From Candidatus Latescibacterota bacterium (GTDB lineage Bacteria; Latescibacterota; UBA2968; GCA-2709665): a stretch of DNA of 64,000 bases. The translations under genes and the position numbers were made by a program. The DNA lies in the NCBI GenBank assembly GCA_963667175.2, contig CAXXXF010000012.1, forward strand, positions 96,001 through 160,000, given 5' to 3'. A model generated the notes under the pieces. It worked only from the letters and a program-made list of their open reading frames with translations. It was not told the origin of the DNA and did no database searches. Shown here piece by piece: positions 47,160 to 64,000 of the stretch (the first letter of the stretch is position 1; every line of letters begins with the position of its first letter).

Positions 47160-47969
47160 CTACCACTCGTTTCCCTTGTATCTTTTGCCGTATACCCGCA
47201 GCCGGCGGTACTTCTGGGATTTCATCTCCCTGTCTTTCATCGCATCCAGCAGGCGTTCAGCCTCTTCCCGGCCAAGCTCCCCGGAGCCCGGCTGCCCTTC
47301 CTGTTGACTCCCGGTCTGCCCTTCTGAGGGATCGCTCCGTCCGCCCCGGTCCTCCTGCGGATCGCCCTGTCTTTCCCCGTCCTGCCGATCGCGATTCCCA
47401 TCGGGGTCCGGATTGGGCCGTTCCGGGGGCTGTTCCCGGTTTCCTTCGTCGTTCGGGTCCTCGTTATTCTGTTCCTTCCCCTCCTCTTTCTTCTCCTGAC
47501 CGTCCTTTCGGTTCTTCTGTTGCTCCTGATTCTGATTCTTCTCCTGCTCCCGCATTTTCTCCAGAACCCATTCCAGATTCACTTTCGCGTCCAGATCGTC
47601 CGGCGTTATCGACAGCGAGCGCTTGTAGGCCTCGACCGCCTGCCGCAGGTTCTGCTGGCGAACGTGGACGTTGCCCAGATTGTAATACGCGAGAGAGAGA
47701 AGCGAGGGGTCCCGGCTCTTCAGCGCGTGCCCAAACTCCTGAAGCGCATCCTGAAAGGCGTTCTTTTTGAAGTAGGCGTCACCCGCGTTGAATCTGAGCT
47801 CCGGCGCGTCGGGTTTTTCCACCTGGGCCTTCCGGTAGTACTCAAGCGCTTCCTCGAACTTGCCTTCGTGAAACAGGCGGTTGCCCTGCCGGTTGTTGTC
47901 CGCCGCCGGATCCAGAAACGTGAAACCCAGAAGCGGTACGACGGCGAAACCAACCAGATACCGGCGCAT
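47160..47969 (-). CDS. batC: BatC-like TPR protein with Q/E-rich linker
   Basis: GNRLF..YYNLGN..DAKVNLE TPRs; low-complexity linker; EAERLLDAM..W C-terminus. Confidence 0.82.
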   Translation of the reverse strand: MRRYLVGFAVVPLLGFTFLDPAADNNRQGNRLFHEGKFEEALEYYRKAQVEKPDAPELRFNAGDAYFKKNAFQDALQEFGHALKSRDPSLLSLAYYNLGNVHVRQQNLRQAVEAYKRSLSITPDDLDAKVNLEWVLEKMREQEKNQNQEQQKNRKDGQEKKEEGKEQNNEDPNDEGNREQPPERPNPDPDGNRDRQDGERQGDPQEDRGGRSDPSEGQTGSQQEGQPGSGELGREEAERLLDAMKDREMKSQKYRRLRVYGKRYKGNEW

Positions 47970-48005
47970 GGCGCAGACTCCCCGGGAGTTCCTGTGTCGC
48001 TGCAT

Positions 48006-49028
48006 TTACTGGAATCGCCCTCGCCACTGTGTTCGCACCCGTCTGCGATCCGACAGCAACGCTTCGCTGACAAAGCAGACGACCGCGACGGCCAGCGGCC
48101 ACTGGTACCGGTGTTTATATTGCGTGAATTTCCGCGAACCCAGTTCCTTCTTCTCCATCTGCGAGATCTCGTGGGTTACCCTGTCCAACCCGACGCCTCC
48201 CGCCTGTGACCGTATGTAGACCCCATCCGTCACCCCTGCCACCTGTTGCAGGCTTGCCTCGTCCAGGCGCGACTTGACGTAGTTGCCCCGGCCGTCTTTC
48301 AGATATTCCGTCCGTCCGTTCCGCTTGACCGGGATCAACTCGCCGCCCGGCGTCCCGACCCCAACCGCAAATATCCGCACCCCGGCTTCCGCCGCGGCTT
48401 CCGCCGCCTCCACCGGATCTTCGGCGTGGTCCTCTCCATCCGTAATCAGCACCAGGACCTTGTACTTGCGTTCTTCGCTTCCGAACGCCCGGGTCGCTAC
48501 GCGAACGGCCTCGGCGATGGCCGTGCCCTTCACCGGAATGATATCGGTGTCGATCGAATCCAGAAACAGCTTCGCGGCGCCATAGTCCAGGGTGAGCGGA
48601 CAGAGGGTAAAGCTGCGACCCGCGAACGCGACCAGGCCGATCCTGTCGCCTTCGAGCCGGTCGATAAAGGACTCGATCTCAATCAGCGCGCGCGTCAGCC
48701 GATTGGGCCGGATGTCTTCCGCGAGCATGCTCAGCGACGTGTCCAGGGCGACCATGACGTCAACGCCCCTGCGATGCAGGAGTTCGAGCCGCATCCCGTA
48801 CCTGGGCTGCGCCAGCGCGACGACCAGAAAGAAGAGTCCGACGACCGTCAACGCCGCCTTCACCCACTGCCGCTTCCAGCTCGTGGCCGCGGTCAGCTTG
48901 CGCATCAGTTCCGGGCTCCCGAAACGCGCGAGGGCCCGCCTTTTCTTCCGGTAGGCGACGGCGAAAAACAGGACGGCCGCCGGCACGGACAACAGGTACC
49001 AGAACGCCTGAACGTCGCCAAAACGCAC
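48006..49028 (-). CDS. batB: BatB VWA-domain membrane protein
   Basis: LAQPRYG, MIDAS DTSLSM, PNRL, CPLTLDY and LITDGEDH. Confidence 0.88.
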   Translation of the reverse strand: MRFGDVQAFWYLLSVPAAVLFFAVAYRKKRRALARFGSPELMRKLTAATSWKRQWVKAALTVVGLFFLVVALAQPRYGMRLELLHRRGVDVMVALDTSLSMLAEDIRPNRLTRALIEIESFIDRLEGDRIGLVAFAGRSFTLCPLTLDYGAAKLFLDSIDTDIIPVKGTAIAEAVRVATRAFGSEERKYKVLVLITDGEDHAEDPVEAAEAAAEAGVRIFAVGVGTPGGELIPVKRNGRTEYLKDGRGNYVKSRLDEASLQQVAGVTDGVYIRSQAGGVGLDRVTHEISQMEKKELGSRKFTQYKHRYQWPLAVAVVCFVSEALLSDRRRVRTQWRGRFQ

Positions 49029-49029
49029 C

Positions 49030-50016
49030 TCAGGGAATCCTCCGAAACCGCGTGTTGGCCAGCATCAGTTCGACGCCGAGCAGAACCAGACCCGGCCAGA
49101 GGAAATACGTGAACGTCTCCGAGTAGTCCACGTAGTCGCGTGTCTTGATTTCCGTTTTCTCCATCTCGCCGATGGCGCGATAGATCTCCTCGAGTTTCTT
49201 TTCGCTGGTCGCCCGGAAGTACCGGCCGCCGGTGATATCGGCGACTTCCCGGAGGGTCTCTTCGTCGATCTCCACCCGAACCCGCTGCCGGAGCAGGCCC
49301 TGGCCCGTCACGATCACCCCATCGCTTCCCGCACCGATGGTGTATATTCGTATGCCCACCGCCATGGCGGCACGGGCGGCCGTAACGGGGTCCACTTCTC
49401 CCCTGTTGTTTACCCCATCCGTCAACAGGATGACGACGCGGCTCTTGGCTTCCGACCGCCGCAACCGGTTTAGCGCAGTAACGATGCCAGTCCCGATTGC
49501 CGTGCCGTCCCAGGAATCCTCCGCGAGCCGCACCTCATTCAGAAAGCTCAGGAATATGCCGTAGTCGAGGGTGAGCGGACACTGCGTGTAGCTCTCGCCC
49601 GCGAAGACGACGAGTCCCAACCGGTCGTTGACCCGCCCCCGCACGAACTGGGTCACGACCTCCTTGCTGACCTGCAGCCGGGACTTTCGCTGCTGGTCCA
49701 GGTCTTTGTGCGCCATGCTGCCCGACACGTCCAGGGCGAGTACAATATCGATCCCCCGGGTCAGGATTTCTCTTCCTTCGCGTCCGGAACGCGGACGCGC
49801 CAGCGCCACAATCAGCAGGATCAGCGCCAGGCAGCGAAGCGCAATGAGACCGTGGCGAAACTTCAGCACGACTGAAGGCGGAATCTGCCCGATGACGCCC
49901 AGGTCCGGAAAACGGATGCTGCCCTGCTTCTGCCGCTGCCGGCGTACGTATCGGTAGATCAGCACCGGTACAAAGACAAGGGCGATCAGCCATTCAGGAT
50001 TCTTGAATTCAATCAT
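49030..50016 (-). CDS. batA: BatA VWA-domain membrane protein
   Basis: LARPR, MIDAS DVSGSM, GTAIG, LLTDGVNN and TGGRYFRA. Confidence 0.9.
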   Translation of the reverse strand: MIEFKNPEWLIALVFVPVLIYRYVRRQRQKQGSIRFPDLGVIGQIPPSVVLKFRHGLIALRCLALILLIVALARPRSGREGREILTRGIDIVLALDVSGSMAHKDLDQQRKSRLQVSKEVVTQFVRGRVNDRLGLVVFAGESYTQCPLTLDYGIFLSFLNEVRLAEDSWDGTAIGTGIVTALNRLRRSEAKSRVVILLTDGVNNRGEVDPVTAARAAMAVGIRIYTIGAGSDGVIVTGQGLLRQRVRVEIDEETLREVADITGGRYFRATSEKKLEEIYRAIGEMEKTEIKTRDYVDYSETFTYFLWPGLVLLGVELMLANTRFRRIP

Positions 50017-50969
50017 GCCGTGGCTTCCGCGGGCGCCGCAATCACCGAATCGTCCTGATCCGTCTGGACCTGCGCGTCCATCCGCCGCATCAGATCCAGC
50101 ACCGAATCGGCGGCCTTCAACGCGACTTCATCGCGGGGCATGAGCTTTGCGAATTTGACCAGGTCCGCCTCCGACAACAGCCGCTCGAGCGCCGATACCT
50201 CCGCTTCCCCGACCGGAACACGTCTGAGGTCCCGCACCAGTTCGCGCGTAGTACACTCCATTGCATCCACCCGGACCCGATCCTCGAGGTAGCGGCGCGT
50301 CACCTCGGAAAGCAGGCTGTAATACCGCTTCAGCGCTCCTTTTTCCACGAGCCGCATCCGAAGGATCTTTGCGACTTCGTCCGGCCAGACAACCGGCGGC
50401 CCCGGCGGATCGGACCCCGGCTTCCGGCGACGGCGACTCCAAACCCACAGGAAAGCGGCCACCAGGCCAATCAGAACGGCCAGGGCGATCCAGAACCAGG
50501 CCGGTATGCTGGCGTCGACGTCGACGGGAGGCTTCACGTCCCGGATATCCGTCATTCCCGGCGGTCTGACGCTACGTACCACAACCGGTATCGGTCCGGT
50601 GGCAATCAGGCCGGAGTCGCCCTCGGCCGTCCGCACCTGAAGCACAAGCGAGGGCACTTCGACCTCACCCGGCCGGTACACGGCAAGTTCGAAGGCGAGT
50701 GTCTCCTCCACCCGTCCGTCGGGAGTCTCCCGAACCGAGGGCGGTACCCGGCGGCGCACCTCGAACGGCGCGAGGAAGTCCTCGTTTTGCATCAATGCGA
50801 CGACGTCTCCCGATTCACGCAGGATCCGCACGTTCAGAAGTACGGGATCGCCGACCGTCAGCGTGTCCCTGTTGACCGCCGAGTCGAACAGAATTTCGGC
50901 GCGGGCGTCGGGCGATGAAATCAAGAGGCCGCACGCGGCAATCCAGACCGATATCAGGACGCGGGCCAT
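50013..50969 (-). CDS. Bat-operon exported/membrane protein (BatD-like N-terminal Ig fold, TM, DUF4381-like C-terminus)
   Basis: Signal peptide, TVGDP, IRDVKPP, TM, RRYLE..AMECTT.E and ADLVKFAK; this gene typically precedes batA. Confidence 0.7.
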   Translation of the reverse strand: MARVLISVWIAACGLLISSPDARAEILFDSAVNRDTLTVGDPVLLNVRILRESGDVVALMQNEDFLAPFEVRRRVPPSVRETPDGRVEETLAFELAVYRPGEVEVPSLVLQVRTAEGDSGLIATGPIPVVVRSVRPPGMTDIRDVKPPVDVDASIPAWFWIALAVLIGLVAAFLWVWSRRRRKPGSDPPGPPVVWPDEVAKILRMRLVEKGALKRYYSLLSEVTRRYLEDRVRVDAMECTTRELVRDLRRVPVGEAEVSALERLLSEADLVKFAKLMPRDEVALKAADSVLDLMRRMDAQVQTDQDDSVIAAPAEATA

Positions 50970-52384
50970 ATTCCGTTGACGACCTTCCGTACTCCCAGCC
51001 GTACGGTATCGGGTTGAACCACGTCCGGTTTCACCGGGATGAGTTCGAGCTTCAGTTTCGTCAGGATATTGGGATCGATCCTGACGATCTGGGGACGCTG
51101 ATGTCCCCGTGCGTAGAGGTTGCCATCCCTTTCACCGACACTCAGTTTCTGCGCCACCGCGTCGCCACGCCAGGCGGTGATCTCCAGTGCCGGGCGGTCA
51201 AAACCGAATGCGTCCGGCGTTGCCAGCGCTTCCGCGACGAATTCTTCGGCTTCGAGCAGTTCGATGGTGCGAAAGAGACGTCGGACGCGGTGTTCCAGGA
51301 CGATATGCAGCTTCGGCTGCAGCACCTGCCAGCCTTCGCCGCGTTGATCTCTGACACATTCCACCGCCCGGTCTCGAAACGCCAGCTTCAACCGGTCGAC
51401 TCCGGCGGTGTCGAACGCAAAGATACGCTTGAATCTCAGATCAGACGCCGTCTTTCTCAGATCTGCGACCAGGGTCGAATCGACCAGAAATACCATGGGA
51501 CGGGCGGAAAAAGTCGCGAAAAACGGAGGAAACCGGCTCGCGCCCATTCGGCGTCCGATCCTTACGGTCTTCTTCCGCTGATCGGGGCCGTCGAAAATCG
51601 ATAGCGTCAGCGTTGGATTTTCCAGGCCGTAATCACCGGCGTCCCCGGGCCCTTCAGCGATTACACGCGTGAATTCGGCAGTATACAGCCGTTGAATCAG
51701 CTTTTGGACCTCGTCACTGTCGGTGCGATCGTTTACCGGAACCGTCATGCGCCATGTTTCCGAGAGCTTCTCCACGACGACCCTGGCGTCCCCTCTGGCA
51801 ATTTCGATTTTCCGCACGGCTTTCCGTTTGAAATCCGCAACGCGCCTGTCGCGCAGTCGCAACAGCCCTTTCTCCAACCTCATCCGGAAAGGGGCGGCGA
51901 CAGCGAGAATGCCCGGATGCCCGGACCACCTGATATAGCCGTAACGACCGGTCGGACTCCGATCTCCCCAGAACAGGGAATCTACCCGGTTCGCCTGCGT
52001 TATCGCCAGTGCCAGATTCGGCCTGTCGAGGCCGAAATCCGAAAGACGCGCCTGCCCTCGCGCGATTCGGACGCTGTCCGCGACCACGCGCTCAAGGTCC
52101 ATATTCTGTAACGTACGGATCAATCCCGTGATTTCGCCGTCGTCGCCGCCGGTGGCTACCGGCTGCAGGATCCGCCATCCGTCCTCCGATTTTTCGATGA
52201 CGATCGTCGTATCGCCCCGTTGAACCGTCAGCCCGTTGACCGCGTCTGCTTCCAGGCGCAGCAGGCGCCCTGCCCTGGTTCGGGCCATATAACGCTCGTC
52301 GGCGCCCCGGATTTCGTAGAAATAGACAAAACCGACCAGCGCGGCCAGAAGCAGCACCAGACCACCTGTTGTCCTTATACTCAT
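50954..52384 (-). CDS. DUF4340-domain protein (repeated domains)
   Basis: N-terminal TM; three repeats with W..P and FGLDRP/YGLENP/FGFDRP motifs; follows the GldG-like gene. Confidence 0.75.
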   Translation of the reverse strand: MSIRTTGGLVLLLAALVGFVYFYEIRGADERYMARTRAGRLLRLEADAVNGLTVQRGDTTIVIEKSEDGWRILQPVATGGDDGEITGLIRTLQNMDLERVVADSVRIARGQARLSDFGLDRPNLALAITQANRVDSLFWGDRSPTGRYGYIRWSGHPGILAVAAPFRMRLEKGLLRLRDRRVADFKRKAVRKIEIARGDARVVVEKLSETWRMTVPVNDRTDSDEVQKLIQRLYTAEFTRVIAEGPGDAGDYGLENPTLTLSIFDGPDQRKKTVRIGRRMGASRFPPFFATFSARPMVFLVDSTLVADLRKTASDLRFKRIFAFDTAGVDRLKLAFRDRAVECVRDQRGEGWQVLQPKLHIVLEHRVRRLFRTIELLEAEEFVAEALATPDAFGFDRPALEITAWRGDAVAQKLSVGERDGNLYARGHQRPQIVRIDPNILTKLKLELIPVKPDVVQPDTVRLGVRKVVNGIWPAS

Positions 52385-52433
52385 AGAAAATGCCTGACCG
52401 GCTTCTCCGTTCCTGGAAAATCATGGCCGGGCG

Positions 52434-53804
52434 TCAGCGCCGCCTGCGCCAGACGCCGATCCCGACGACGACGGGAATCGCCGGAAGAATCACAATGGAA
52501 AGCCATGAAAGCCACATGAGGTCTTCCGCCGTCATTACGACGCCCCTGAACGCCCACATCTTGGGTCGGATCGAGATCAGGTCCCCCTCTTCCATCAGCC
52601 AGCTCACCGCGTTCATGAACAGGTCGCCGTTGCCCACGGCGTCGAAGAACTCGTTGCCAGCAAAATCGGAGTCCCCAAAAACGACGATCCGGGTGTGGCG
52701 CAACCCGACGTCCGAGGATTCATGGCGGCGGTACTTCGGCCTGTCGAGCACGGCGACAGCGAGCGACGCCGGACCCGGCATGTCCGCTCCCGGATCGTAG
52801 ACCGGCGATGCATCGGGCAGTTTGTCTTCCCGCCAACTGTCTCGCGGATGGGTTGTTAGCAGTTCGTGGATCTGCATTCCGGTGGCGTTTTCGATGCGGG
52901 ACACGGACCGCGCAAGCCTGTAAAACGTCCTCAAATTGCGGCTGCGGTGTTTTTCCGATACCGGATGTCGTGCGTACCAGACCGATCCCGGCATGGAGGG
53001 ATCGCCCGGCCCCCAACCCAGGACGTAGTCGTCGTTGACCCGGATGCCCCATCCCGCCAGCAGGGGTTCCAGACCCGTTTCGCCTCCCGGGTCGAGCAAA
53101 AACAACGCGGATCCCCCACCGGCAAGGAAGTTTCGGATAGAATCGGTTTCGATACTCGAGAATGCGGCCGTCGGCCCGGCCACGATCAACAGATCGCAAT
53201 CCGCCGGTACGCCCGTGCCGGCATCCAGCACCAGCGTATCTCGAACCCCGTACCCGGCCTCCCGCAATGACTGCCCGACGCGAATGAAATCGCCTTCCGG
53301 GGCCTTCAGCGTCCGTTCCCCGTGTCCGGCCGAGAAATAGACGGTTTTCCCGCGTTCCCGGACGACCTTGGCCACCGCGTTGGTCAGGTGATTCTCCTCG
53401 GTTCCCGAAATCCGCTCTTCCCGCCCTTCCGACGTGACTACCGAGATTCGCGGCTTGCCCACCCTGTACCGCCGTGCTTCGCCGGGATGAACCGCGGGAT
53501 CGACCATGGCAAAGGTAAACCGTTCCGAATGATAGGCATAGGCTTCCAGCCTTTCCTTGAACTCGACCGCCTCAGGGTCGGTTTCGTGAAAAAACGCCAG
53601 CACGCGCACGTCCGTCGACAGGGAGTCCAGCAACGTGGCGGTCTGGTCGGAGAGGCTGTGCATTCCGCCTTCCGTAACGTCGATCCGGTGGTGATAGCGC
53701 GTGGCGAGGAAGTTGACTGCAGCCAGAATCGCAAGCAGGGCGAGGACGGCAACCAGGGTACTCGAACCGTATCTGACCAGGCGGGTTCCGAAAAAACCGA
53801 TCAT
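52434..53804 (-). CDS. GldG-like ABC transporter auxiliary component
   Basis: RIDVT..SLSDQT, VYFSAGHGE, LIVAGP, VFGDSDF, N.DLFMNAVSWL, and a C-terminal TM + RRRR. Confidence 0.85.
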   Translation of the reverse strand: MIGFFGTRLVRYGSSTLVAVLALLAILAAVNFLATRYHHRIDVTEGGMHSLSDQTATLLDSLSTDVRVLAFFHETDPEAVEFKERLEAYAYHSERFTFAMVDPAVHPGEARRYRVGKPRISVVTSEGREERISGTEENHLTNAVAKVVRERGKTVYFSAGHGERTLKAPEGDFIRVGQSLREAGYGVRDTLVLDAGTGVPADCDLLIVAGPTAAFSSIETDSIRNFLAGGGSALFLLDPGGETGLEPLLAGWGIRVNDDYVLGWGPGDPSMPGSVWYARHPVSEKHRSRNLRTFYRLARSVSRIENATGMQIHELLTTHPRDSWREDKLPDASPVYDPGADMPGPASLAVAVLDRPKYRRHESSDVGLRHTRIVVFGDSDFAGNEFFDAVGNGDLFMNAVSWLMEEGDLISIRPKMWAFRGVVMTAEDLMWLSWLSIVILPAIPVVVGIGVWRRRR

Positions 53805-53807
53805 TGT

Positions 53808-54584
53808 CTACCGCCTCCAGCGGCGCGATTCAAGCACGGTGTGCGTCAGGAACAGGAAAAAAAACGTAAAGGTGAGGAAAAAGACCACGTCGCTGCTGTC
53901 GATCACGCCCCGCGCCATATCCCTCGTGTGATCAATCAACGAAAGGTAGAAGAGAACGGTGGCCCATTCGCGTCCAATTAGCTCGGGCGAATACCGCACC
54001 ACGAAGAGGAGAAGCAGGAGGACAAATGCGATGACGACCGCAACAATCTGTTTGTCGGTCAGCGAGGAAGCCAGTATGCCCACGCTGATGAACGAACCTC
54101 CCAGCAGCAGGATCGCGACACATGCGGACAGCACCCGGCCCCAATTCAGATCGCCGTAAAACGACACGACGAAGATCAGCGAAAGAAGCAGCAGTTCAAT
54201 GATGACGTACAGCCCGAGACAGGCGGCGAATTTGCCGAGAATGACCTGCCAGGTGGTCAGGGGCGACGTCATCAGGAGTTCGATGGTCCCGGAGCCCTTC
54301 TCCTCCGCGAACAGCCGCATCGTCAGCATTGGCGTCACCACCAGCCAGACGAGGCACTGGCTGAGGAAAAAGTTGAACACAACGTCCTCGTTCACGTTAG
54401 GCGCATCCACGCCGTGCTCCTGATGCTGAAATGAATAATTCAGGCATTTCGCGCGAAACTCGACGACTTCGTTCTGGAAGAGATATCCCATCATCAACAG
54501 GAAACCGGTCGCCACCACGTAGGCGATCGGAGAGCCGAAATAGGAACGCATCTCTTTCCAGAGAATCGCGGCGATATTTCCCAT
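53808..54584 (-). CDS. GldF-like ABC-2 permease
   Basis: KEMRSYFGSPIAY, PMLTMRLFAEEK.SGTIELL.TSP, GKF and SSLT.KQIVA. Confidence 0.88.
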   Translation of the reverse strand: MGNIAAILWKEMRSYFGSPIAYVVATGFLLMMGYLFQNEVVEFRAKCLNYSFQHQEHGVDAPNVNEDVVFNFFLSQCLVWLVVTPMLTMRLFAEEKGSGTIELLMTSPLTTWQVILGKFAACLGLYVIIELLLLSLIFVVSFYGDLNWGRVLSACVAILLLGGSFISVGILASSLTDKQIVAVVIAFVLLLLLFVVRYSPELIGREWATVLFYLSLIDHTRDMARGVIDSSDVVFFLTFTFFFLFLTHTVLESRRWRR

Positions 54585-55519
54585 CAGGCGCCTGCCTCCT
54601 CGTGTCCTGTCAATTCGCGAAAGACGTCCTCCAATCCGGCCGTTATCGGTCTCAGTTCCACCAGTCCAAGGTCGCGCTCCACCAGCCTCGCTGCGATCGA
54701 CGGACGCATGTCGGTTTCGCCGGACGCCTCGATCTGTAACGCCTGGTTGTCGTCCGCCCTCCTGACGTCCACCACGCCCGCAACCTCCCGGATGGCTTCG
54801 GCGGCAGCGTCCAGGCCGCCGGACACCGCCACGTAATACCGCCGATTGCCCGACGCGCCCGCCGTCAGGTTTTCCGGCGTATCCACGGCCGCAATCCGAC
54901 CCCTGTTGATGATAATCACGCGATCGCAGGTCTTTTCGACCTCGGGCAGAATGTGTGTGCTCAGAATCACCGTGTGTTCGCGTCCCAGGCCGCGGATCAC
55001 CCTGCGAATCTCCTGGATCTGGTTGGGATCCAGCCCGATGGTGGGTTCATCCAGGATAATGACGTCCGGGTCGTGAAGGATGGCCTGGGCGATGCCGACC
55101 CGCTGACGATATCCCTTGGAAAGCTGGCCGATGATCTGCTTCGCCCGGTCCCTGATCCCGCATCGTTCCATCGCGTCGTCCACCCGGGTCCCGCGATTCC
55201 GCGACGGCACGCCCTTGATCCGCGCCACGAAATCCAGGTACGACCTTACGTACATGTCCCTGTACAGCGGCGGGTGTTCCGGCAGGTACCCGATTCGCCT
55301 CTTGACCTCCATCGGGTCGTGGAACACGTCGAAGCCGGCCACCCGGGCGGCGCCCAGCGTGGCCGGCTGAAAACACGTCAGGATGCGCATGGTGGTGGTC
55401 TTGCCCGCGCCGTTCGGGCCGAGAAATCCGACGACCTCTCCCTTTTCCACGTTGAAGGTGAGGTCCTTGACCGCAACCAGCGACCCATATTGTTTGGTCA
55501 GATGATCAACCTCGATCAC
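54584..55519 (-). CDS. GldA-like ABC transporter ATP-binding protein
   Basis: GPNGAGKTT, LSKGYRQR, ILDEPTIGLDP and LSTHILPEV. Confidence 0.92.
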   Translation of the reverse strand: MIEVDHLTKQYGSLVAVKDLTFNVEKGEVVGFLGPNGAGKTTTMRILTCFQPATLGAARVAGFDVFHDPMEVKRRIGYLPEHPPLYRDMYVRSYLDFVARIKGVPSRNRGTRVDDAMERCGIRDRAKQIIGQLSKGYRQRVGIAQAILHDPDVIILDEPTIGLDPNQIQEIRRVIRGLGREHTVILSTHILPEVEKTCDRVIIINRGRIAAVDTPENLTAGASGNRRYYVAVSGGLDAAAEAIREVAGVVDVRRADDNQALQIEASGETDMRPSIAARLVERDLGLVELRPITAGLEDVFRELTGHEEAGA

Positions 55520-55529
55520 GCCGGCCCTC

Positions 55530-56411
55530 CTATGCCGCGATCTGCTGCGCCCGCTTTCTGAAGAATCGCATCAGCGCATCCGCGTAGGACGCTTCCGTAT
55601 GGATATCCACGCGGTCGACGCCAACGGAACGGAACAGCTGATCCCGCCGCTCCTCCGCCTTGTCGTTCAACTGCCGGAAAAGAACCCGAAACTCCCGGTC
55701 GGAAGTATCCACCAGCATCTCGCGGCCGGTTTCCGCGTCTTCCATTTCGACGAGACCGACGTCGGGCAATTCACGCTCCCGCGGGTCCTGAAGCACAACC
55801 GCGATCAGGTCGTGCCGCCGGCACGATACACGAAGCGCCGCTTCGTAGCCGGAAGCCAGAAAGTCGGAAACAAGAAACACCACGCTCTTCCGCTTGTTGA
55901 TCCGGTTGAGGGTATCCAGGGCGGCGCCGACGTCCGTTCCCCGCCGGCTGGGCCGGAAGTACAACAGTTCCCGTATGACCCGCAACACGTGCTTCCTGCC
56001 CTTCTTGGGCGGTATAAACGCCTCCACGTCGTCCGTGAAGATAATCAGCCCCACCCGATCGTTGTTCTGTATCGCCGAGAATGCCAGCAGGGCGCAGATC
56101 TCGACGCCGATTTCGCCCTTCATCTGCGAGACGGTTCCGAAATCGCCGGAGGCGCTGGCATCCACCATCAACATCACCGTCAGTTCGCGTTCTTCGTCGT
56201 ACACCTTGACAAAGGGATGTCCCATCCGGGCGGTGACGTTCCAGTCTATCGCTCGGATATCGTCCCCCACCTGGTATTCACGCACTTCGGCAAACGCCAT
56301 TCCCTGGCCCTTGAAGACGGAATGGTACTCTCCCGAAAACACGGTATCGACCAGGCGCCTCGTGCGCAGTTCAATGCGCTTCACCTTCCTGAGTATCTCG
56401 GCGGGAATCAT
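55530..56411 (-). CDS. DUF58 (VWA-like) MoxR partner
   Basis: SVFKGQGMAFAEVREYQVGDDIRAIDWNVTAR, EEREL-like motif, DASAS and SDF. Confidence 0.92.
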   Translation of the reverse strand: MIPAEILRKVKRIELRTRRLVDTVFSGEYHSVFKGQGMAFAEVREYQVGDDIRAIDWNVTARMGHPFVKVYDEERELTVMLMVDASASGDFGTVSQMKGEIGVEICALLAFSAIQNNDRVGLIIFTDDVEAFIPPKKGRKHVLRVIRELLYFRPSRRGTDVGAALDTLNRINKRKSVVFLVSDFLASGYEAALRVSCRRHDLIAVVLQDPRERELPDVGLVEMEDAETGREMLVDTSDREFRVLFRQLNDKAEERRDQLFRSVGVDRVDIHTEASYADALMRFFRKRAQQIAA

Positions 56412-56415
56412 CGCG

Positions 56416-57411
56416 TCAGGGCACCTCGATATGATCGAAAATCCGACGGACGATCTCCTCAGAATCGACCTCCTCGGCTTCCGCTTCGTACGTTACGATC
56501 ACCCGGTGACGAAGCACGTCCAGGCCCATGGCTTTCACGTCTTCCGGCGTCACGTATCCCCTCTGCCGCAAAAAGGCGTGGGCCTTGGCCGCGCGCGTCA
56601 GGAAGATGGAACCCCGCGGCGAACATCCGTATTCTATCAGCGCGTTGAGATCCTGAATCCCGAACGCGGCGGGGTCGCGGGTTGCCAGCATCAGGTTTAC
56701 GACGTAGTCCTTGATCTTGTCGTCGACGTACACCCGGTCGACCACCCCACGCGCGCGGATGATATCTTCGGGCCGGACCACGGGGTTCGGGGCCGGGGGT
56801 TCCCCGCCCTCCATCCGGTCGATGATCGCCCGCTCCTCCTCCCGGCGAGGATAGGTGACGCGGACCTTCATCATGAACCGGTCCACCTGCGCCTCCGGCA
56901 GCGGATAGGTTCCCTCCTGCTCAATGGGATTCTGCGTGGCCAGAACCAGAAACGGATCGTCCATCCGGAAGGTCCGGTCGCCGATGGTCACCTGCCGCTC
57001 CTGCATCGCCTCAAGCATGGCGCTCTGCACCTTGGCGGGCGCTCTGTTCACTTCGTCGGCGAGCACGAGTTGCGCGAAGACCGGACCTCTCTTCGGCGCG
57101 AATTCGCCGGTGGCCTGGTTGTAGATCATCGTACCGATCAGGTCCGCGGGCAACAGATCGGGGGTGAACTGAATCCGGCTGAACGAGGCCTGGATCGCGC
57201 TTGCAAGCGTGGTGACGGTCAAGGTCTTTGCCAGGCCGGGCACGCCTTCGAGCAACACGTGGCCGTTGCACAGCAGTCCGATCAGCAGCCGTTCCACCAT
57301 GGGCTCCTGGCCTACGATCACACGGCCCACCTCACCCGTGAGGCGCTGGACAAAGGCGCTCTCCCGTTCCACTTCATCGTTCAGTTGCTGGATTTCGGCG
57401 GCGATCATCAT
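56416..57411 (-). CDS. moxR: MoxR family AAA+ ATPase
   Basis: LEGVPGLAKT, RIQFTPDLLPAD, DEVNRAPAKVQSA and ATQNPIEQEGTYPLPEAQVDRF. Confidence 0.95.
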   Translation of the reverse strand: MMIAAEIQQLNDEVERESAFVQRLTGEVGRVIVGQEPMVERLLIGLLCNGHVLLEGVPGLAKTLTVTTLASAIQASFSRIQFTPDLLPADLIGTMIYNQATGEFAPKRGPVFAQLVLADEVNRAPAKVQSAMLEAMQERQVTIGDRTFRMDDPFLVLATQNPIEQEGTYPLPEAQVDRFMMKVRVTYPRREEERAIIDRMEGGEPPAPNPVVRPEDIIRARGVVDRVYVDDKIKDYVVNLMLATRDPAAFGIQDLNALIEYGCSPRGSIFLTRAAKAHAFLRQRGYVTPEDVKAMGLDVLRHRVIVTYEAEAEEVDSEEIVRRIFDHIEVP

Positions 57412-57607
57412 CCTGGAATCCCAAAATAGAACACCGGACGGTTTCCTCATGCACCGATACCGTCCGGCTGCGACGTGCTGATGGATAATCGAGAAATCAT
57501 GGCTTCAAGAACGGAACGACAGCCTGAAACGGCGATACGCGTGGGATCGGGGCGCGTCGACAGGGACCCTGTACCGACCTCTGTCGAAACACGTACCCGT
57601 TCCCGGT

Positions 57608-61189: not shown

Positions 61190-63232
61190 TCAGTTCCGGA
61201 ACAGTTTCAGCCAGCGACTCGAGCGCCTTACACGTCGGTTCAGGAAGGACTCCAACCGGTCGCGTTTCAGTACGATCTGGTCCGCTACACTGGCGGTATC
61301 GTCCAGAATCCAGTCCGGAATATCGCTCTTCATCCGGCTTGACGCCATAATATCCGCAGCAATGATCACCGTGTCCCCAGCGAGCGTCCAACTGCCGGAT
61401 GGCGGCTTGCGTTCGCCGCTGTATTTGTCAGCGTGCAGCAGGTTCCCGAGAATGAGGCGCGGCCTTTCAAACGCCCGCTCCTGATACTCACTCAGGGTCA
61501 TCGGTGAACACCACGCGGGCATTTCAACGCCTGGAGGCAGGTTCTCCCGGAAGATACGGCACAGGACCTCCGATGACAGTTCAAGGGCGTCCACGTCATC
61601 ACCATCCGTACCGTCAGACCTGAGCAGTCCGTCCATTTCCGCGAGCATATGCTTCAGATACGACTGGTATAGCGCCGTACTCAGCCTTTCGCGAATTGAT
61701 GCGACCGACCGCTGGAGTCTTCGCCGGGCTGTCGGATCGTCACCCGGCAGAGACGTCCTTGTATAAATCATGAGACATCGTTTCACGATTTCCGGCAGAA
61801 AGCTTCTCGCGTCGGCATTCATGGATAGCGCGAAACACGGATACTCGGAATACGTAATGGTCTCATCCTTGATAATTTCGGGGGCGTGCCGGCTGAAGCG
61901 GTCGCGCGTGACGTCATCGAAGACCACCGGAAATCGCTTATAGGATTCCTGCAATCCGCGAAGGTTGCTTCGCGTGAAATACTGCGTTTCGACGATTCGG
62001 GGGTGAGAAAACATGGACGACATCAGCGTTTCGATCAGGCTGCTCTTTCCGCAATTGCTCTGCCCGTAGAGTACCGCGAACATCGGTTGGTCGAAGCTGA
62101 AACGACTCCGCCGCAGGGCGGCATTTCTGAGGTCGCACATAAATGGCGAAAAATAGAACCAGCACATGAACGTGAAGTAATCGCGCTGCAATCGGGCGAT
62201 ATCACCGAAAAAGCGATTCTCATAATTGCCGAAGAATTCCAACCAGGCGTCGACGTCACGTCTGACTTGAGACGGGTCAACGTCAAGGCTGAGTTCCTGG
62301 CCTGAGAGCGAGAAGACACCTCCGTTGTATGACAGGAACGTCTTCGGTCCGTCATTTTCATGGTTGGACGTGCGGATTCGCGTCATCTGCTTGACGATCG
62401 ACGACGTGAATTTGATGATTCCCTTTCTGTCGGGGCGGATGTCGGCCAGGGCCTGCCTGCGTGACGGCTTGATGTGTTCAACCTGAGACAGGACTCGAGG
62501 CACACTGTATTCGGGCTCGTTATCCTCTTCGGACGGCACGAAAATCGAGACGCCGTTGTTGCTGCGTTCAGCCTCCTTCAGTGCAGGCGTCTCCTCAATT
62601 GGCAAGAGTTCCGCCGGAACCGGCTGTTCACGCAGTGGTACCCGGCTCGAAGCGACGTCGCGAACCGCGTCGTACTGCCGGCGATAGTGGTCCCACGCAA
62701 CGTCGTCGTTGTCGAACGCGATCAATGTTTCGGCCTGCCTCCCCGAGAACGCTGTCTCCGAAAGGTTGGCCGAGCCGACGATCACCCGACGTAGTCCCTC
62801 CCGCTCCAGCAGGTAAATCTTGGCGTGCGCGATCGTGTCCTTGACGACAAAAAAGCGGGCGGATTCATCCACGGCGCGATCATAGATGAATTTCTTCCGT
62901 TCTTCGGACAGGCCCTTGATACCCACGAAACCTTTGTTCAGCTTTTCATCCACGACGGCCTGGAACCCCAGCACATCGGCGGCGTCACGAGGCAGAATGC
63001 CGCTGTGACCGAAAATACATTCGAAATCCTCGTAGTCGTAGTCCCTGAGCAACGCCAGGATCATCGGTATGCTCGGCGTATACGTGAGCGCACGCATGGA
63101 AGTGAAGCCCCCGAACAGGGCGTCTCTATCAAATCTCTCTGACTCGTTGGCGCTCGCGTACACGACGTCCAGTCCCCCACTCTGCGTGCGGGAGTAGGGA
63201 TCATTAAGCGCGAGGTTTTGTTGTGATTGCAT
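61190..63232 (-). CDS. PLD-family (NgoFVII-like) nuclease domain fused to a P-loop ATPase
   Basis: HAKIYL..IVGSANLSETAF PLD motif; GQSNCGKS Walker A, VVFDD Walker B, LSMN sensor and KR finger. Start ATG 63232 or TTG 63265. Confidence 0.75.
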   Translation of the reverse strand: MQSQQNLALNDPYSRTQSGGLDVVYASANESERFDRDALFGGFTSMRALTYTPSIPMILALLRDYDYEDFECIFGHSGILPRDAADVLGFQAVVDEKLNKGFVGIKGLSEERKKFIYDRAVDESARFFVVKDTIAHAKIYLLEREGLRRVIVGSANLSETAFSGRQAETLIAFDNDDVAWDHYRRQYDAVRDVASSRVPLREQPVPAELLPIEETPALKEAERSNNGVSIFVPSEEDNEPEYSVPRVLSQVEHIKPSRRQALADIRPDRKGIIKFTSSIVKQMTRIRTSNHENDGPKTFLSYNGGVFSLSGQELSLDVDPSQVRRDVDAWLEFFGNYENRFFGDIARLQRDYFTFMCWFYFSPFMCDLRNAALRRSRFSFDQPMFAVLYGQSNCGKSSLIETLMSSMFSHPRIVETQYFTRSNLRGLQESYKRFPVVFDDVTRDRFSRHAPEIIKDETITYSEYPCFALSMNADARSFLPEIVKRCLMIYTRTSLPGDDPTARRRLQRSVASIRERLSTALYQSYLKHMLAEMDGLLRSDGTDGDDVDALELSSEVLCRIFRENLPPGVEMPAWCSPMTLSEYQERAFERPRLILGNLLHADKYSGERKPPSGSWTLAGDTVIIAADIMASSRMKSDIPDWILDDTASVADQIVLKRDRLESFLNRRVRRSSRWLKLFRN

Positions 63233-63305
63233 TTCGTTAGAATTCCAGTCCAAGTGCCGTGTCAATGTTCATTTTGGATTGTACGGCGTGAACATAGCAC
63301 TTCCG

Positions 63306-63632
63306 CTAAATCGCAATGACCTTCGTGACACCTTCCCGTTCCGGCCAATCGATATGTATGCTTACGTCGCAATTGAGACGCTCGAGAAACCGCATCAGCC
63401 TTTCGACGCTGTAATAGGAAAACTTGCCGTTCTTCAGTCTGGAGATCTCCGGCTGCTTAACCCCCATGATCCTCGCGGCCTTCGTTTGAGTCAGCCTGCG
63501 ATGTTCCAGAATCCGGAATATTTCCGCGCCGAGTTCTGCTTTGAGCAGTTCCTCTCTGGCTTCCTCATCACCAAAGCCGAGGTCTGTAAAGACGTTGCCG
63601 CTGCCCTCTTCGACTCTTATATCCTGGCCCAT
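63306..63632 (-). CDS. XRE-family HTH protein (HTH_37/HigA-like antitoxin type)
   Basis: SGNVFTDLG, LTQTKAARIMGVKQPEISRL and FS..SVERL. Confidence 0.88.
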   Translation of the reverse strand: MGQDIRVEEGSGNVFTDLGFGDEEAREELLKAELGAEIFRILEHRRLTQTKAARIMGVKQPEISRLKNGKFSYYSVERLMRFLERLNCDVSIHIDWPEREGVTKVIAI

Positions 63633-63654: not shown

Positions 63655-64000
63655 TCACGCGCCGAACGACTTTAGCAGAATGGCCGGCAACCGTTTCAAC
63701 TCCTGGTTGCGAGGGTCCACCTCGAAGCCGCCGGACTCAAGCGCCGTCACCCCAAGCAGGGGTTCGGCGCCTTCCTCGCCATAGACGATTGTGCCGCCCA
63801 CGACCTCTCCCTCGAATTCAAGGTCGGCAGTCGTTATCTCCATGCTGATCCCGGTCCCGTCTGCGAGGGTGTACTCGCGGCGGCCCTTCGGCGTGAGTCC
63901 GATGGCTTCCAACCGAGCCCTGGGCACGAGCGAGTCGAACGCGCCGGTGTCCACCAGGAATGCGCCGGTCCAGCTTCGCTGCAGATCGGCCGGATTTCGG
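63655..64000 (-). CDS. Clan AA (retropepsin-like, AF_0612-type) aspartic protease, 5' truncated by window edge
   Basis: The frame is open to the edge: RNPADLQRSWTGAFLVDTGA, LADG, EPLLGVTALES and VDP. Confidence 0.85.
   Translation of the reverse strand, partial: RNPADLQRSWTGAFLVDTGAFDSLVPRARLEAIGLTPKGRREYTLADGTGISMEITTADLEFEGEVVGGTIVYGEEGAEPLLGVTALESGGFEVDPRNQELKRLPAILLKSFGA

Follow-up and report, generated by a model that had tools for sequence, protein, structure and literature searches.

The Locus

The window analysed here is a stretch of 64,000 nucleotides from the genome of a member of the Latescibacterota, and the gene under study lies close to its end. An open reading frame at 61190-63265 of the minus strand comprises 691 codons from an in-frame TTG and 680 from the likelier ATG; the equivalent of this ATG is the start in close homologs, which are likewise 680 aa long. 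All the motifs quoted in the initial annotation of this ~680-aa frame (T50/Y51, HxK, GSAN, E168, Walker A and B, N472, R485) are present. The features are as follows, in the numbering of the 680-aa form; AgaP is the Argonaute-associated protein of Natrinema pellirubrum discussed below.

61190..63232 (-), PLD nuclease/AAA+ motor fusion gene, 680 aa, likely start ATG at 63232
63265 (-), in-frame alternative TTG start
62633..63157 (-), single-HxK PLD nuclease domain, residues ~26-200, from Pfam (RE_NgoFVII/PLDc_2) and fold matches
62819..62827 (-), H136-x-K138 catalytic motif, aligned with AgaP H105/K107, invariant in 92/92 homologs
62765..62776 (-), G153-S-A-N156 motif, aligned with AgaP G157/S158/N160
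62729-62731 (-), E168, after G153-S-A-N156, invariant in 92/92 aligned homologs
62348..62632 (-), variable linker, residues ~201-295, where model confidence is lowest and dN/dS highest
61463..62347 (-), AAA+ ATPase, region of Pfam 38 PF27394 (Aq_aa27), likely of the MCM-like Cch/SaPIbov1 Rep type
62042-62065 (-), Walker A, G390-K396
to 61913 (-), Walker B, D439/D440
61817-61819 (-), sensor N472
61778-61780 (-), arginine finger R485
61235..61462 (-), small C-terminal alpha/beta domain, inside the Cch/SaPIbov1 Rep alignment
61193..61231 (-), amphipathic, basic helix ending the chain, residues 668-680, candidate membrane anchor

The roles assigned to the Walker, sensor and arginine-finger residues are presumably those of AAA+ proteins in general.

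The fusion gene is intact and under purifying selection. Whole-gene dN/dS lies at 0.08-0.12 for five of the six relatives compared (the sixth comparison is saturated); each domain shows ~0.1, with somewhat higher values in the linker. The GC content is 56%, against 59.5% genome-wide. A polyamine-type ABC transporter operon flanks the gene on one side and a Gfo oxidoreductase on the other, and a promoter scan found no minus-strand promoter upstream of it.

The fusion gene stands behind two genes, an aspartic protease and an HTH gene. The protease (Clan AA, TIGR03698; window 63655-64000, minus strand, running on to L001:10029) is present at this slot in some relatives and absent in others. The HTH_37 antitoxin-like gene (window 63306-63632, minus strand) lies 73 bp upstream of the fusion gene, with no toxin in front. 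A relative of it in locus L007 comes after a Gp49 toxin; because the same family trails this toxin there and the toxin is absent here, the gene looks like an orphaned antitoxin. A role as controller or antitoxin part of the fusion gene was considered and rejected; the HTH gene is paired with Gp49 in L007 and lacks conservation outside this chromosomal slot. Small toxin-antitoxin-type genes (DUF2442 twice, DUF433) cluster at L001:15023-19632 (contig C12, ~165-170 kb), and this cluster varies among relatives. Further along the window (47160-57450, minus strand) is an ordinary Bat-type cluster with a MoxR AAA ATPase, a DUF58-like gene, two vWA genes and TPR genes, accompanied by a Gld-like ABC transporter and identified by eye from the translations.

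Domain Architecture

The reading of the product as a PLD nuclease and an AAA+ ATPase in one chain is upheld by Pfam, by fold matches and by invariant residues in 92 homologs. In the nuclease half, the Pfam RE_NgoFVII PLD match (E=6.5e-6) is over the cut-off, and fold matches of the PLD model include the SauUSI PLD domain (Z 12.0), Nuc (Z 10.7), R.NgoAVII (Z 10.4, spanning residues 26-210 only) and BfiI (Z 8.7). Structure comparison also finds the PLD fold in lipid enzymes and FAM83. H136, K138, S154, N156 and E168 are invariant in all 92 aligned homologs. In single-HxK nucleases, two PLD domains must pair to form one active site. The ALTYT segment, originally taken for a half-site, belongs to the PLD fold as a conserved strand on the N-terminal side, and the analysis gave no sign that it is a catalytic half-site.

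In the motor half, K396, N472 and R485 are likewise invariant in the 92 homologs, and residue 440 is D in 89 and E in three; conservation of the arginine finger would imply oligomers only. A Pfam RNA_helicase match (E=1.4e-4) is over the cut-off. A sequence search of solved structures with the protein returned nothing significant, and a profile search gave a best E of 0.026 (Cch 0.065, NucT 0.074), none of them significant. The AlphaFold model has a pLDDT of 88.8 at full length and of 95.0 for the C-terminal half alone. Against 48,161 chains, the motor half matched best SaPIbov1 Rep (Z 13.7, rmsd 7.0, 291 aligned) and, second, Cch (Z 13.4, rmsd 7.5, 305 aligned), both matches covering residues 1-376 of the 386-residue C-terminal-half model. 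MCM came next (Z 9.7), and the SF3 chains PriRep5 (Z 9.6), D5 (8.8) and E1 (7.7) all fell at least 3.8 Z below Cch/Rep; BrxL is a weaker match (Z 8.0). On this model, the motor likely resembles the MCM-like (SF6) helicases Cch and SaPIbov1 Rep more than it does classical SF3 motors, a class assignment to be read with an rmsd of ~7 Å and 12% identity in mind. Of the SF3/AAA+ motor first proposed, the AAA+ part stands; SF3, with fold matches of Z 9.6 or less against 13-14 and the Pfam RNA_helicase match over the cut-off, is the less likely class.

Cch (of SCCmec, PDB 5dgk) and SaPIbov1 Rep (PDB 8tch) are the best structural match over the ATPase and C-terminal domain together. Both are hexameric self-loading helicases, grouped with MCM in SF6, whose C-terminal winged helix binds DNA and reads short sequences (PMC9371898; bioRxiv 10.64898/2026.10.17.759575). 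The fusion protein differs from them in that its N-terminal domain is a PLD nuclease and neither an iteron-like array within 6 kb nor element genes nearby were found with it. Its small C-terminal alpha/beta domain might tentatively be the counterpart of their winged helix, the same rmsd and identity making this the weaker of the two assignments. Residues 575-680 gave no usable match in an atlas search, and the domain is conserved like the rest of the protein (dN/dS 0.08-0.12). Neither Pfam nor fold searches with the whole model and with the C-terminal half detected an SRA/PUA or other methyl-reader domain.

The extreme C-terminus is a basic amphipathic helix, and tails of this type resemble MinD-type membrane anchors. 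Under a criterion fixed for the main test, its thresholds having been picked after a first look at the data, such tails are present in 39 of the 84 cluster representatives and, among the archaeal rows, in 23 of 49, compared with 12/240, 11/110 and 3/56 (5-10%) in the control sets; 200 shuffles of the tails yielded at most 25 among the representatives and 14 among the archaeal rows. A cruder first test had given 28/92 and, for the archaeal rows, 2/49, versus 7/240 in controls. N. pellirubrum AgaP falls narrowly short of the criterion. The amphipathic tail is enriched family-wide and is a candidate membrane anchor.

Family Size, Spread, Gain and Loss

The sequence family of the fusion protein is that of the P-loop NTPase Aq_aa27 (PF27394, Pfam 38) together with PF09565/PF13091, a combination found in 120/120 homologs among the matches listed and also in the top atlas clusters; BrxL is the next atlas family after Aq_aa27 (0.84). 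The existence of this Pfam family, and of a published haloarchaeal member, AgaP, whose effects on a plasmid and a virus have been examined by genetics (PMC11442185), speaks against the initial description of the protein as undescribed. We found no literature on Aq_aa27 of Aquifex and no published study of a stand-alone family member, subscription papers and the supplementary candidate tables of preprints lying outside the scope of the search. PADLOC 2.0 holds no full-length model for the family, and PADLOC and NCBIfam give motif-level matches only.

Of the 7,996 candidates scored in a word search, 698 proved to be relatives, and the full scan gave 232 clusters at 50% identity (E up to 1e-30). 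Carriers belong to Latescibacterota, Chloroflexota, Pseudomonadota, Acidobacteriota and others, intermixed on the tree (FastTree, midpoint-drawn, unrooted, with long branches meeting), and near-identical family proteins occur in different phyla. With three candidates scored per genome, 14 of 300 sampled genomes were positive in the phylum of carrier genome G042, and none of 400 besides the starting one in that of G043. Plasmid-borne copies sit among toxin-antitoxin genes, and one on an Arcobacter plasmid adjoins parA/parB/rep. Annotated phages gave no match in 50,697 records; the 52 matches on viral contigs stem for the most part from copies of a single large gut element and do not count as independent.

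Closer to the host, breakage and loss of the gene are frequent. Among the 15 genomes of its own genus the gene is intact in four, broken in three, reduced to end remnants in five and not found in three, while 12 of 16 genomes in the neighbouring genus have it intact; overall, 17 of 41 related genomes carry an intact copy. Relatives L051-L053 show in-place deletion or replacement of the gene with the flanking housekeeping genes still syntenic, and the same slot in relatives holds GmrSD, AAA-PDDEXK or Gp49/HTH genes, or a remnant consisting of the last 46-48 codons only. Of 51 species-level loci, 38 are intact, contig ends cutting some of the remainder.

Several variants of the family were also observed. 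Bacillota have ~800-aa versions with an added HTH_3 domain (89% of the members of one atlas cluster). The gut element mentioned above, present in many near-copies (L060-L109), encodes a 721-aa member, with N6 and C5 methyltransferases 4-7 kb downstream in one arrangement, unseen in the other. In L133 and L134, an 817-aa member lies directly upstream of a BREX-like operon (BrxA match).

Absence of Conserved Partners

No conserved partner gene was found across 49 species-level loci or 79 metagenome loci, in agreement with the gene being stand-alone as first described, and neither a separate helicase subunit nor a B3-like DNA-recognition domain is conserved at the family loci or in the protein. 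The absence of an adjacent methyltransferase extends well beyond the window: the nearest seed match to a DNA methyltransferase is ~109 kb off on contig C12, and the genome holds at least 18 DNA-methyltransferase-like seed matches elsewhere. Methyltransferase-like ORFs flank 38 of 198 family loci (29 of the 38 being copies of the one gut element), none nearer than 1.2 kb and none co-oriented nearer than 4.1 kb; PADLOC adds three weak mad2-type matches (L032, L038, L199). Methyltransferases near family loci are occasional and uncoupled, and homologs are not regularly paired with one.

PADLOC searches of 190 plus 145 distinct nearest neighbours revealed scattered defence genes at a minority of loci (GmrSD, AbiEii, Eleos, type IV, BREX, type I and IIG restriction-modification). 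No pAgo occurred among the 335 distinct neighbours of bacterial-type loci, a positive control having worked. The host genome (95% complete) has no Piwi match by Pfam or a local pAgo profile, nor have five other carrier genomes from four lineages; of the 17 related genomes in which the gene is intact, only two have one, in both cases >150 kb from the gene. Integrase, relaxase and primase genes are absent among the 27 upstream genes (to 33 kb) and the nearest downstream genes. No iteron-like clustered repeats lie within 6 kb, a search whose 8-base seed passes over iterons of 5-6 bp and so excludes only longer arrays.

Relationship to AgaP and Other Known Systems

The closest characterised protein is AgaP, the PLD partner of a long-A pAgo in the APAP system of N. 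pellirubrum (Cheng et al. 2024, PMC11442185). Homology is end to end (hhalign probability 100, E=6.7e-41, 583 columns, both domains), and the bacterial profile scores AgaP at E=3.4e-29 while the archaeal profile scores the fusion protein at E=8.6e-11 (5.8e9 database); pairwise identity comes to a low 22% (179 residues), and in the tree a long branch leads to the archaeal clade. The identity of AgaP is secure, since all nine residue numbers given by the authors match and the mutagenesis primers in the supplement encode the same stretches (PMC11442185). PLD motifs, ATPase motifs, length class and domain order are common to the two proteins. H136, K138, S154 and N156 align with AgaP H105, K107, S158 and N160, and the ATPase residues of AgaP (Walker A K453, Walker B D499, N532, R543) are invariant in 49/49 archaeal rows. 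Two differences concern the PLD half: the acid E168 is N in 49/49 archaeal rows (AgaP N171), and the HxK-to-GSxN spacing is 14 residues in the fusion protein, whereas the "split motif" of AgaP corresponds to a 34-residue insertion. Furthermore, APAP has a co-encoded long-A pAgo, while the fusion gene has neither an adjacent Argonaute nor a Piwi match in its genome.

According to Cheng et al. (2024, PMC11442185), 28 of the 63 ago genes of haloarchaea are paired with agaP. Expressed by itself in a foreign host, AgaP is toxic, an effect that depends on its HxK and GSxN residues; plasmid restriction by APAP requires the AgaP site and not the Argonaute site, and the AgaP catalytic residues enhance virus immunity. 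Its restriction of a plasmid and of a single-stranded DNA virus is linked to Argonaute, and no abortive infection was seen at high multiplicity. The nuclease activity of AgaP was deduced from mutants, not in vitro. The salt-adapted APAP proteins resisted purification, and plasmid-versus-chromosome discrimination was left open. The authors looked for a helicase in neighbouring genes; the ATPase half goes unmentioned, with no occurrence of ATPase, NTPase or Walker (PMC11442185).

The association with Argonaute varies among haloarchaea. A plasmid search found a haloarchaeal homolog gene overlapping a Piwi gene, and of the 20 haloarchaeal plasmid records matched, 12 were inspected. In seven, a long pAgo gene immediately precedes the homolog (in one case with an intervening gene), and five lack this arrangement; these five plasmids, searched apart from their host chromosomes, give no Piwi match over the cut-off, and two of them encode proteins 81% identical to N. 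pellirubrum AgaP. Argonaute appears to be an optional regulator, acting as restraint and guide, in part of the haloarchaeal clade.

Additional genes were noted on these plasmids. Next to all seven pAgo-AgaP operons (L058, L112-L115, L117, L122) lies an oppositely oriented gene for an AAA ATPase of 530-560 aa, which may be a further part of the pAgo-AgaP system; UvrD, PD-(D/E)XK or helicase genes come after two of the seven. Divergent from the Ago-less AgaP homologs are 375-aa genes (L120:4545-5672; L121:4544-5671, minus strand) with a weak match to the pAgo profile (E ~1e-8) and none to a Pfam family; they may correspond to the OB-type N-terminal portion of these pAgos. At L122:5998-8151 the AgaP gene is missing from the plasmid annotation, which has two opposite-strand hypotheticals and a truncated C-terminal gene instead.

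Other systems are more remote. R.NgoAVII, R.CglI and BfiI have the PLD fold and Pfam family in common with the fusion protein, and their systems include methyltransferases. The helicase-like ATPase of SauUSI belongs to SF2; such an ATPase is absent here, the motor having AAA+ motifs and matching AAA+ ring helicases. CglI requires a separate helicase subunit, whereas the present motor is fused and of another class. SauUSI resembles the fusion protein as one chain with a PLD nuclease, an ATP motor and no cognate methyltransferase, and differs as a dimer with a methyl-reading target domain, no such reader being found here (PMC7913695). BrxL-HKD variants of type 1 BREX also fuse an AAA+ motor to an HKD nuclease, but in the reverse domain order and within a multi-gene methyltransferase system (PMC12839542). 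The fusion protein is a member of the AgaP/Aq_aa27 family and stands outside the APAP system, type II restriction-modification and SauUSI-type type IV restriction.

Proposed Function and Alternative Scenarios

The fusion protein is probably a nuclease directed against foreign DNA; as a distant full-length relative of AgaP, it therefore likely attacks such DNA without an Argonaute. Its genetics look defence-like as well, with breakage and loss inside the genus, other genes taking its place at the slot, near-identical proteins in separate phyla and copies borne by plasmids next to toxin-antitoxin genes. With somewhat less assurance, we favour a scenario in which it works alone as an ATP-driven ring nuclease destroying foreign DNA, plasmids above all. 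Coupling of the predicted nuclease to a ring motor, by analogy with Cch and SaPIbov1 Rep, is put at similarly better than even. The AAA+ half would form a ring and self-load on DNA like these helicases, and ATP hydrolysis would move or unwind the DNA and feed the paired PLD domains. With its own motor in the chain, the enzyme would need no helicase subunit. Loading would gate cutting, so that the host chromosome is spared with no methyltransferase, which would explain movement between phyla without one. What licenses loading could be an end or fork in the DNA, a plasmid origin, the copy number or a position at the membrane. Through its amphipathic tail the enzyme may be kept at the membrane, the entry point of incoming DNA, and membrane-based discrimination of self from non-self is a rather doubtful addition to the scenario.

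Some observations count against this. The toxicity of AgaP alone leaves the restraint of a partnerless copy unaccounted for, most family neighbourhoods are housekeeping rather than defence islands, and 12 of 16 intact copies in the neighbouring genus is high for a defence gene. Regarding the original proposal of an anti-phage effector, defence is retained as likely, but the published AgaP data lean towards plasmids over phages (PMC11442185).

A bolder scenario, which we consider unlikely as a whole, is that of a widespread one-gene immune enzyme derived from a mobile-element initiator, in which a self-loading MCM-like ring, held at the inner membrane by its tail, would clamp onto incoming DNA or onto plasmid-type origins and shred the DNA with the fused PLD nucleases. 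Taken jointly, and at the same low probability, self and non-self would be told by place and DNA structure and not by methylation or guides, and haloarchaeal Argonautes would have recruited the ready-made machine as a plug-in; such recruitment would mean that AgaP supplies the unwinding that mesophilic Argonautes lack.

The protein might instead be a restriction enzyme reading sequence or base modification through its C-terminal domain, SauUSI-like, in a host without the mark or protected by a methyltransferase. That SauUSI and R.NgoAVII are the best PLD matches, that an absent cognate methyltransferase fits type IV, that the Cch/Rep winged helix reads short sequences and that the 18 or more methyltransferase-like matches elsewhere could afford remote protection all speak for it. 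Nevertheless, we regard it as improbable. No SRA/PUA or other reader domain was found by Pfam or the fold searches, and the modification dependence originally suggested has no positive support here; the C-terminal domain equals the remainder of the protein in conservation and gives no hint of a change in specificity; a gene that passes between phyla on its own is unlikely to need a matching methyltransferase; and restriction by AgaP is Argonaute-linked (PMC11442185).

Abortive infection, also raised in the initial annotation, would have a phage product switch on the ATPase and host DNA degraded in a toxin-like manner. The toxicity of AgaP through its catalytic residues (PMC11442185), the frequent breakage or loss of the gene in relatives and the antitoxin-like gene 73 bp upstream are compatible with it. 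The latter, however, belongs with Gp49 in L007 and is unconserved outside this slot, and the APAP results at high multiplicity, without abortive infection (PMC11442185), argue against this scenario, to which we give a small chance.

Just as small is the chance of a non-defence role, either as a mobile-element replication initiator (a nickase with a self-loading helicase) or in DNA repair or the processing of DNA taken up. The closest solved folds of the motor are indeed mobile-element initiators, the Arcobacter copy stands beside parA/parB/rep, and retention in one genus is high. Yet integrase, relaxase and primase genes are lacking nearby and no iteron-like array was seen within the 6 kb searched, the housekeeping neighbours stay syntenic upon gene loss, the 50,697 annotated phage records contain no match, and AgaP removes plasmids (PMC11442185). 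Action of the PLD domain on a lipid or other phosphodiester at the membrane is the least probable alternative: the family-wide tail, the occurrence of the fold in lipid enzymes and FAM83 and the lack of in vitro nuclease data for AgaP would allow it, against restriction-type nucleases as best PLD matches, fusion to a DNA-helicase-type motor and AgaP-dependent plasmid loss (PMC11442185).

Implications

The Pfam family PF27394 and the genetics of AgaP (PMC11442185) were already known. New here are the likely assignment of the motor to Cch/Rep (SF6) rather than SF3, a test of the amphipathic tail against controls, and evidence that close relatives of AgaP, too, have pAgo as an option only. The helicase sought by the APAP authors in neighbouring genes is suggested to be already fused to AgaP, and a partner-free bacterial homolog with an overlooked, predicted ring motor makes the question of how APAP discriminates plasmid from chromosome directly testable. 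If active alone, the fusion protein would add to prokaryotic defence a family of 232 clusters without a full-length PADLOC 2.0 model.
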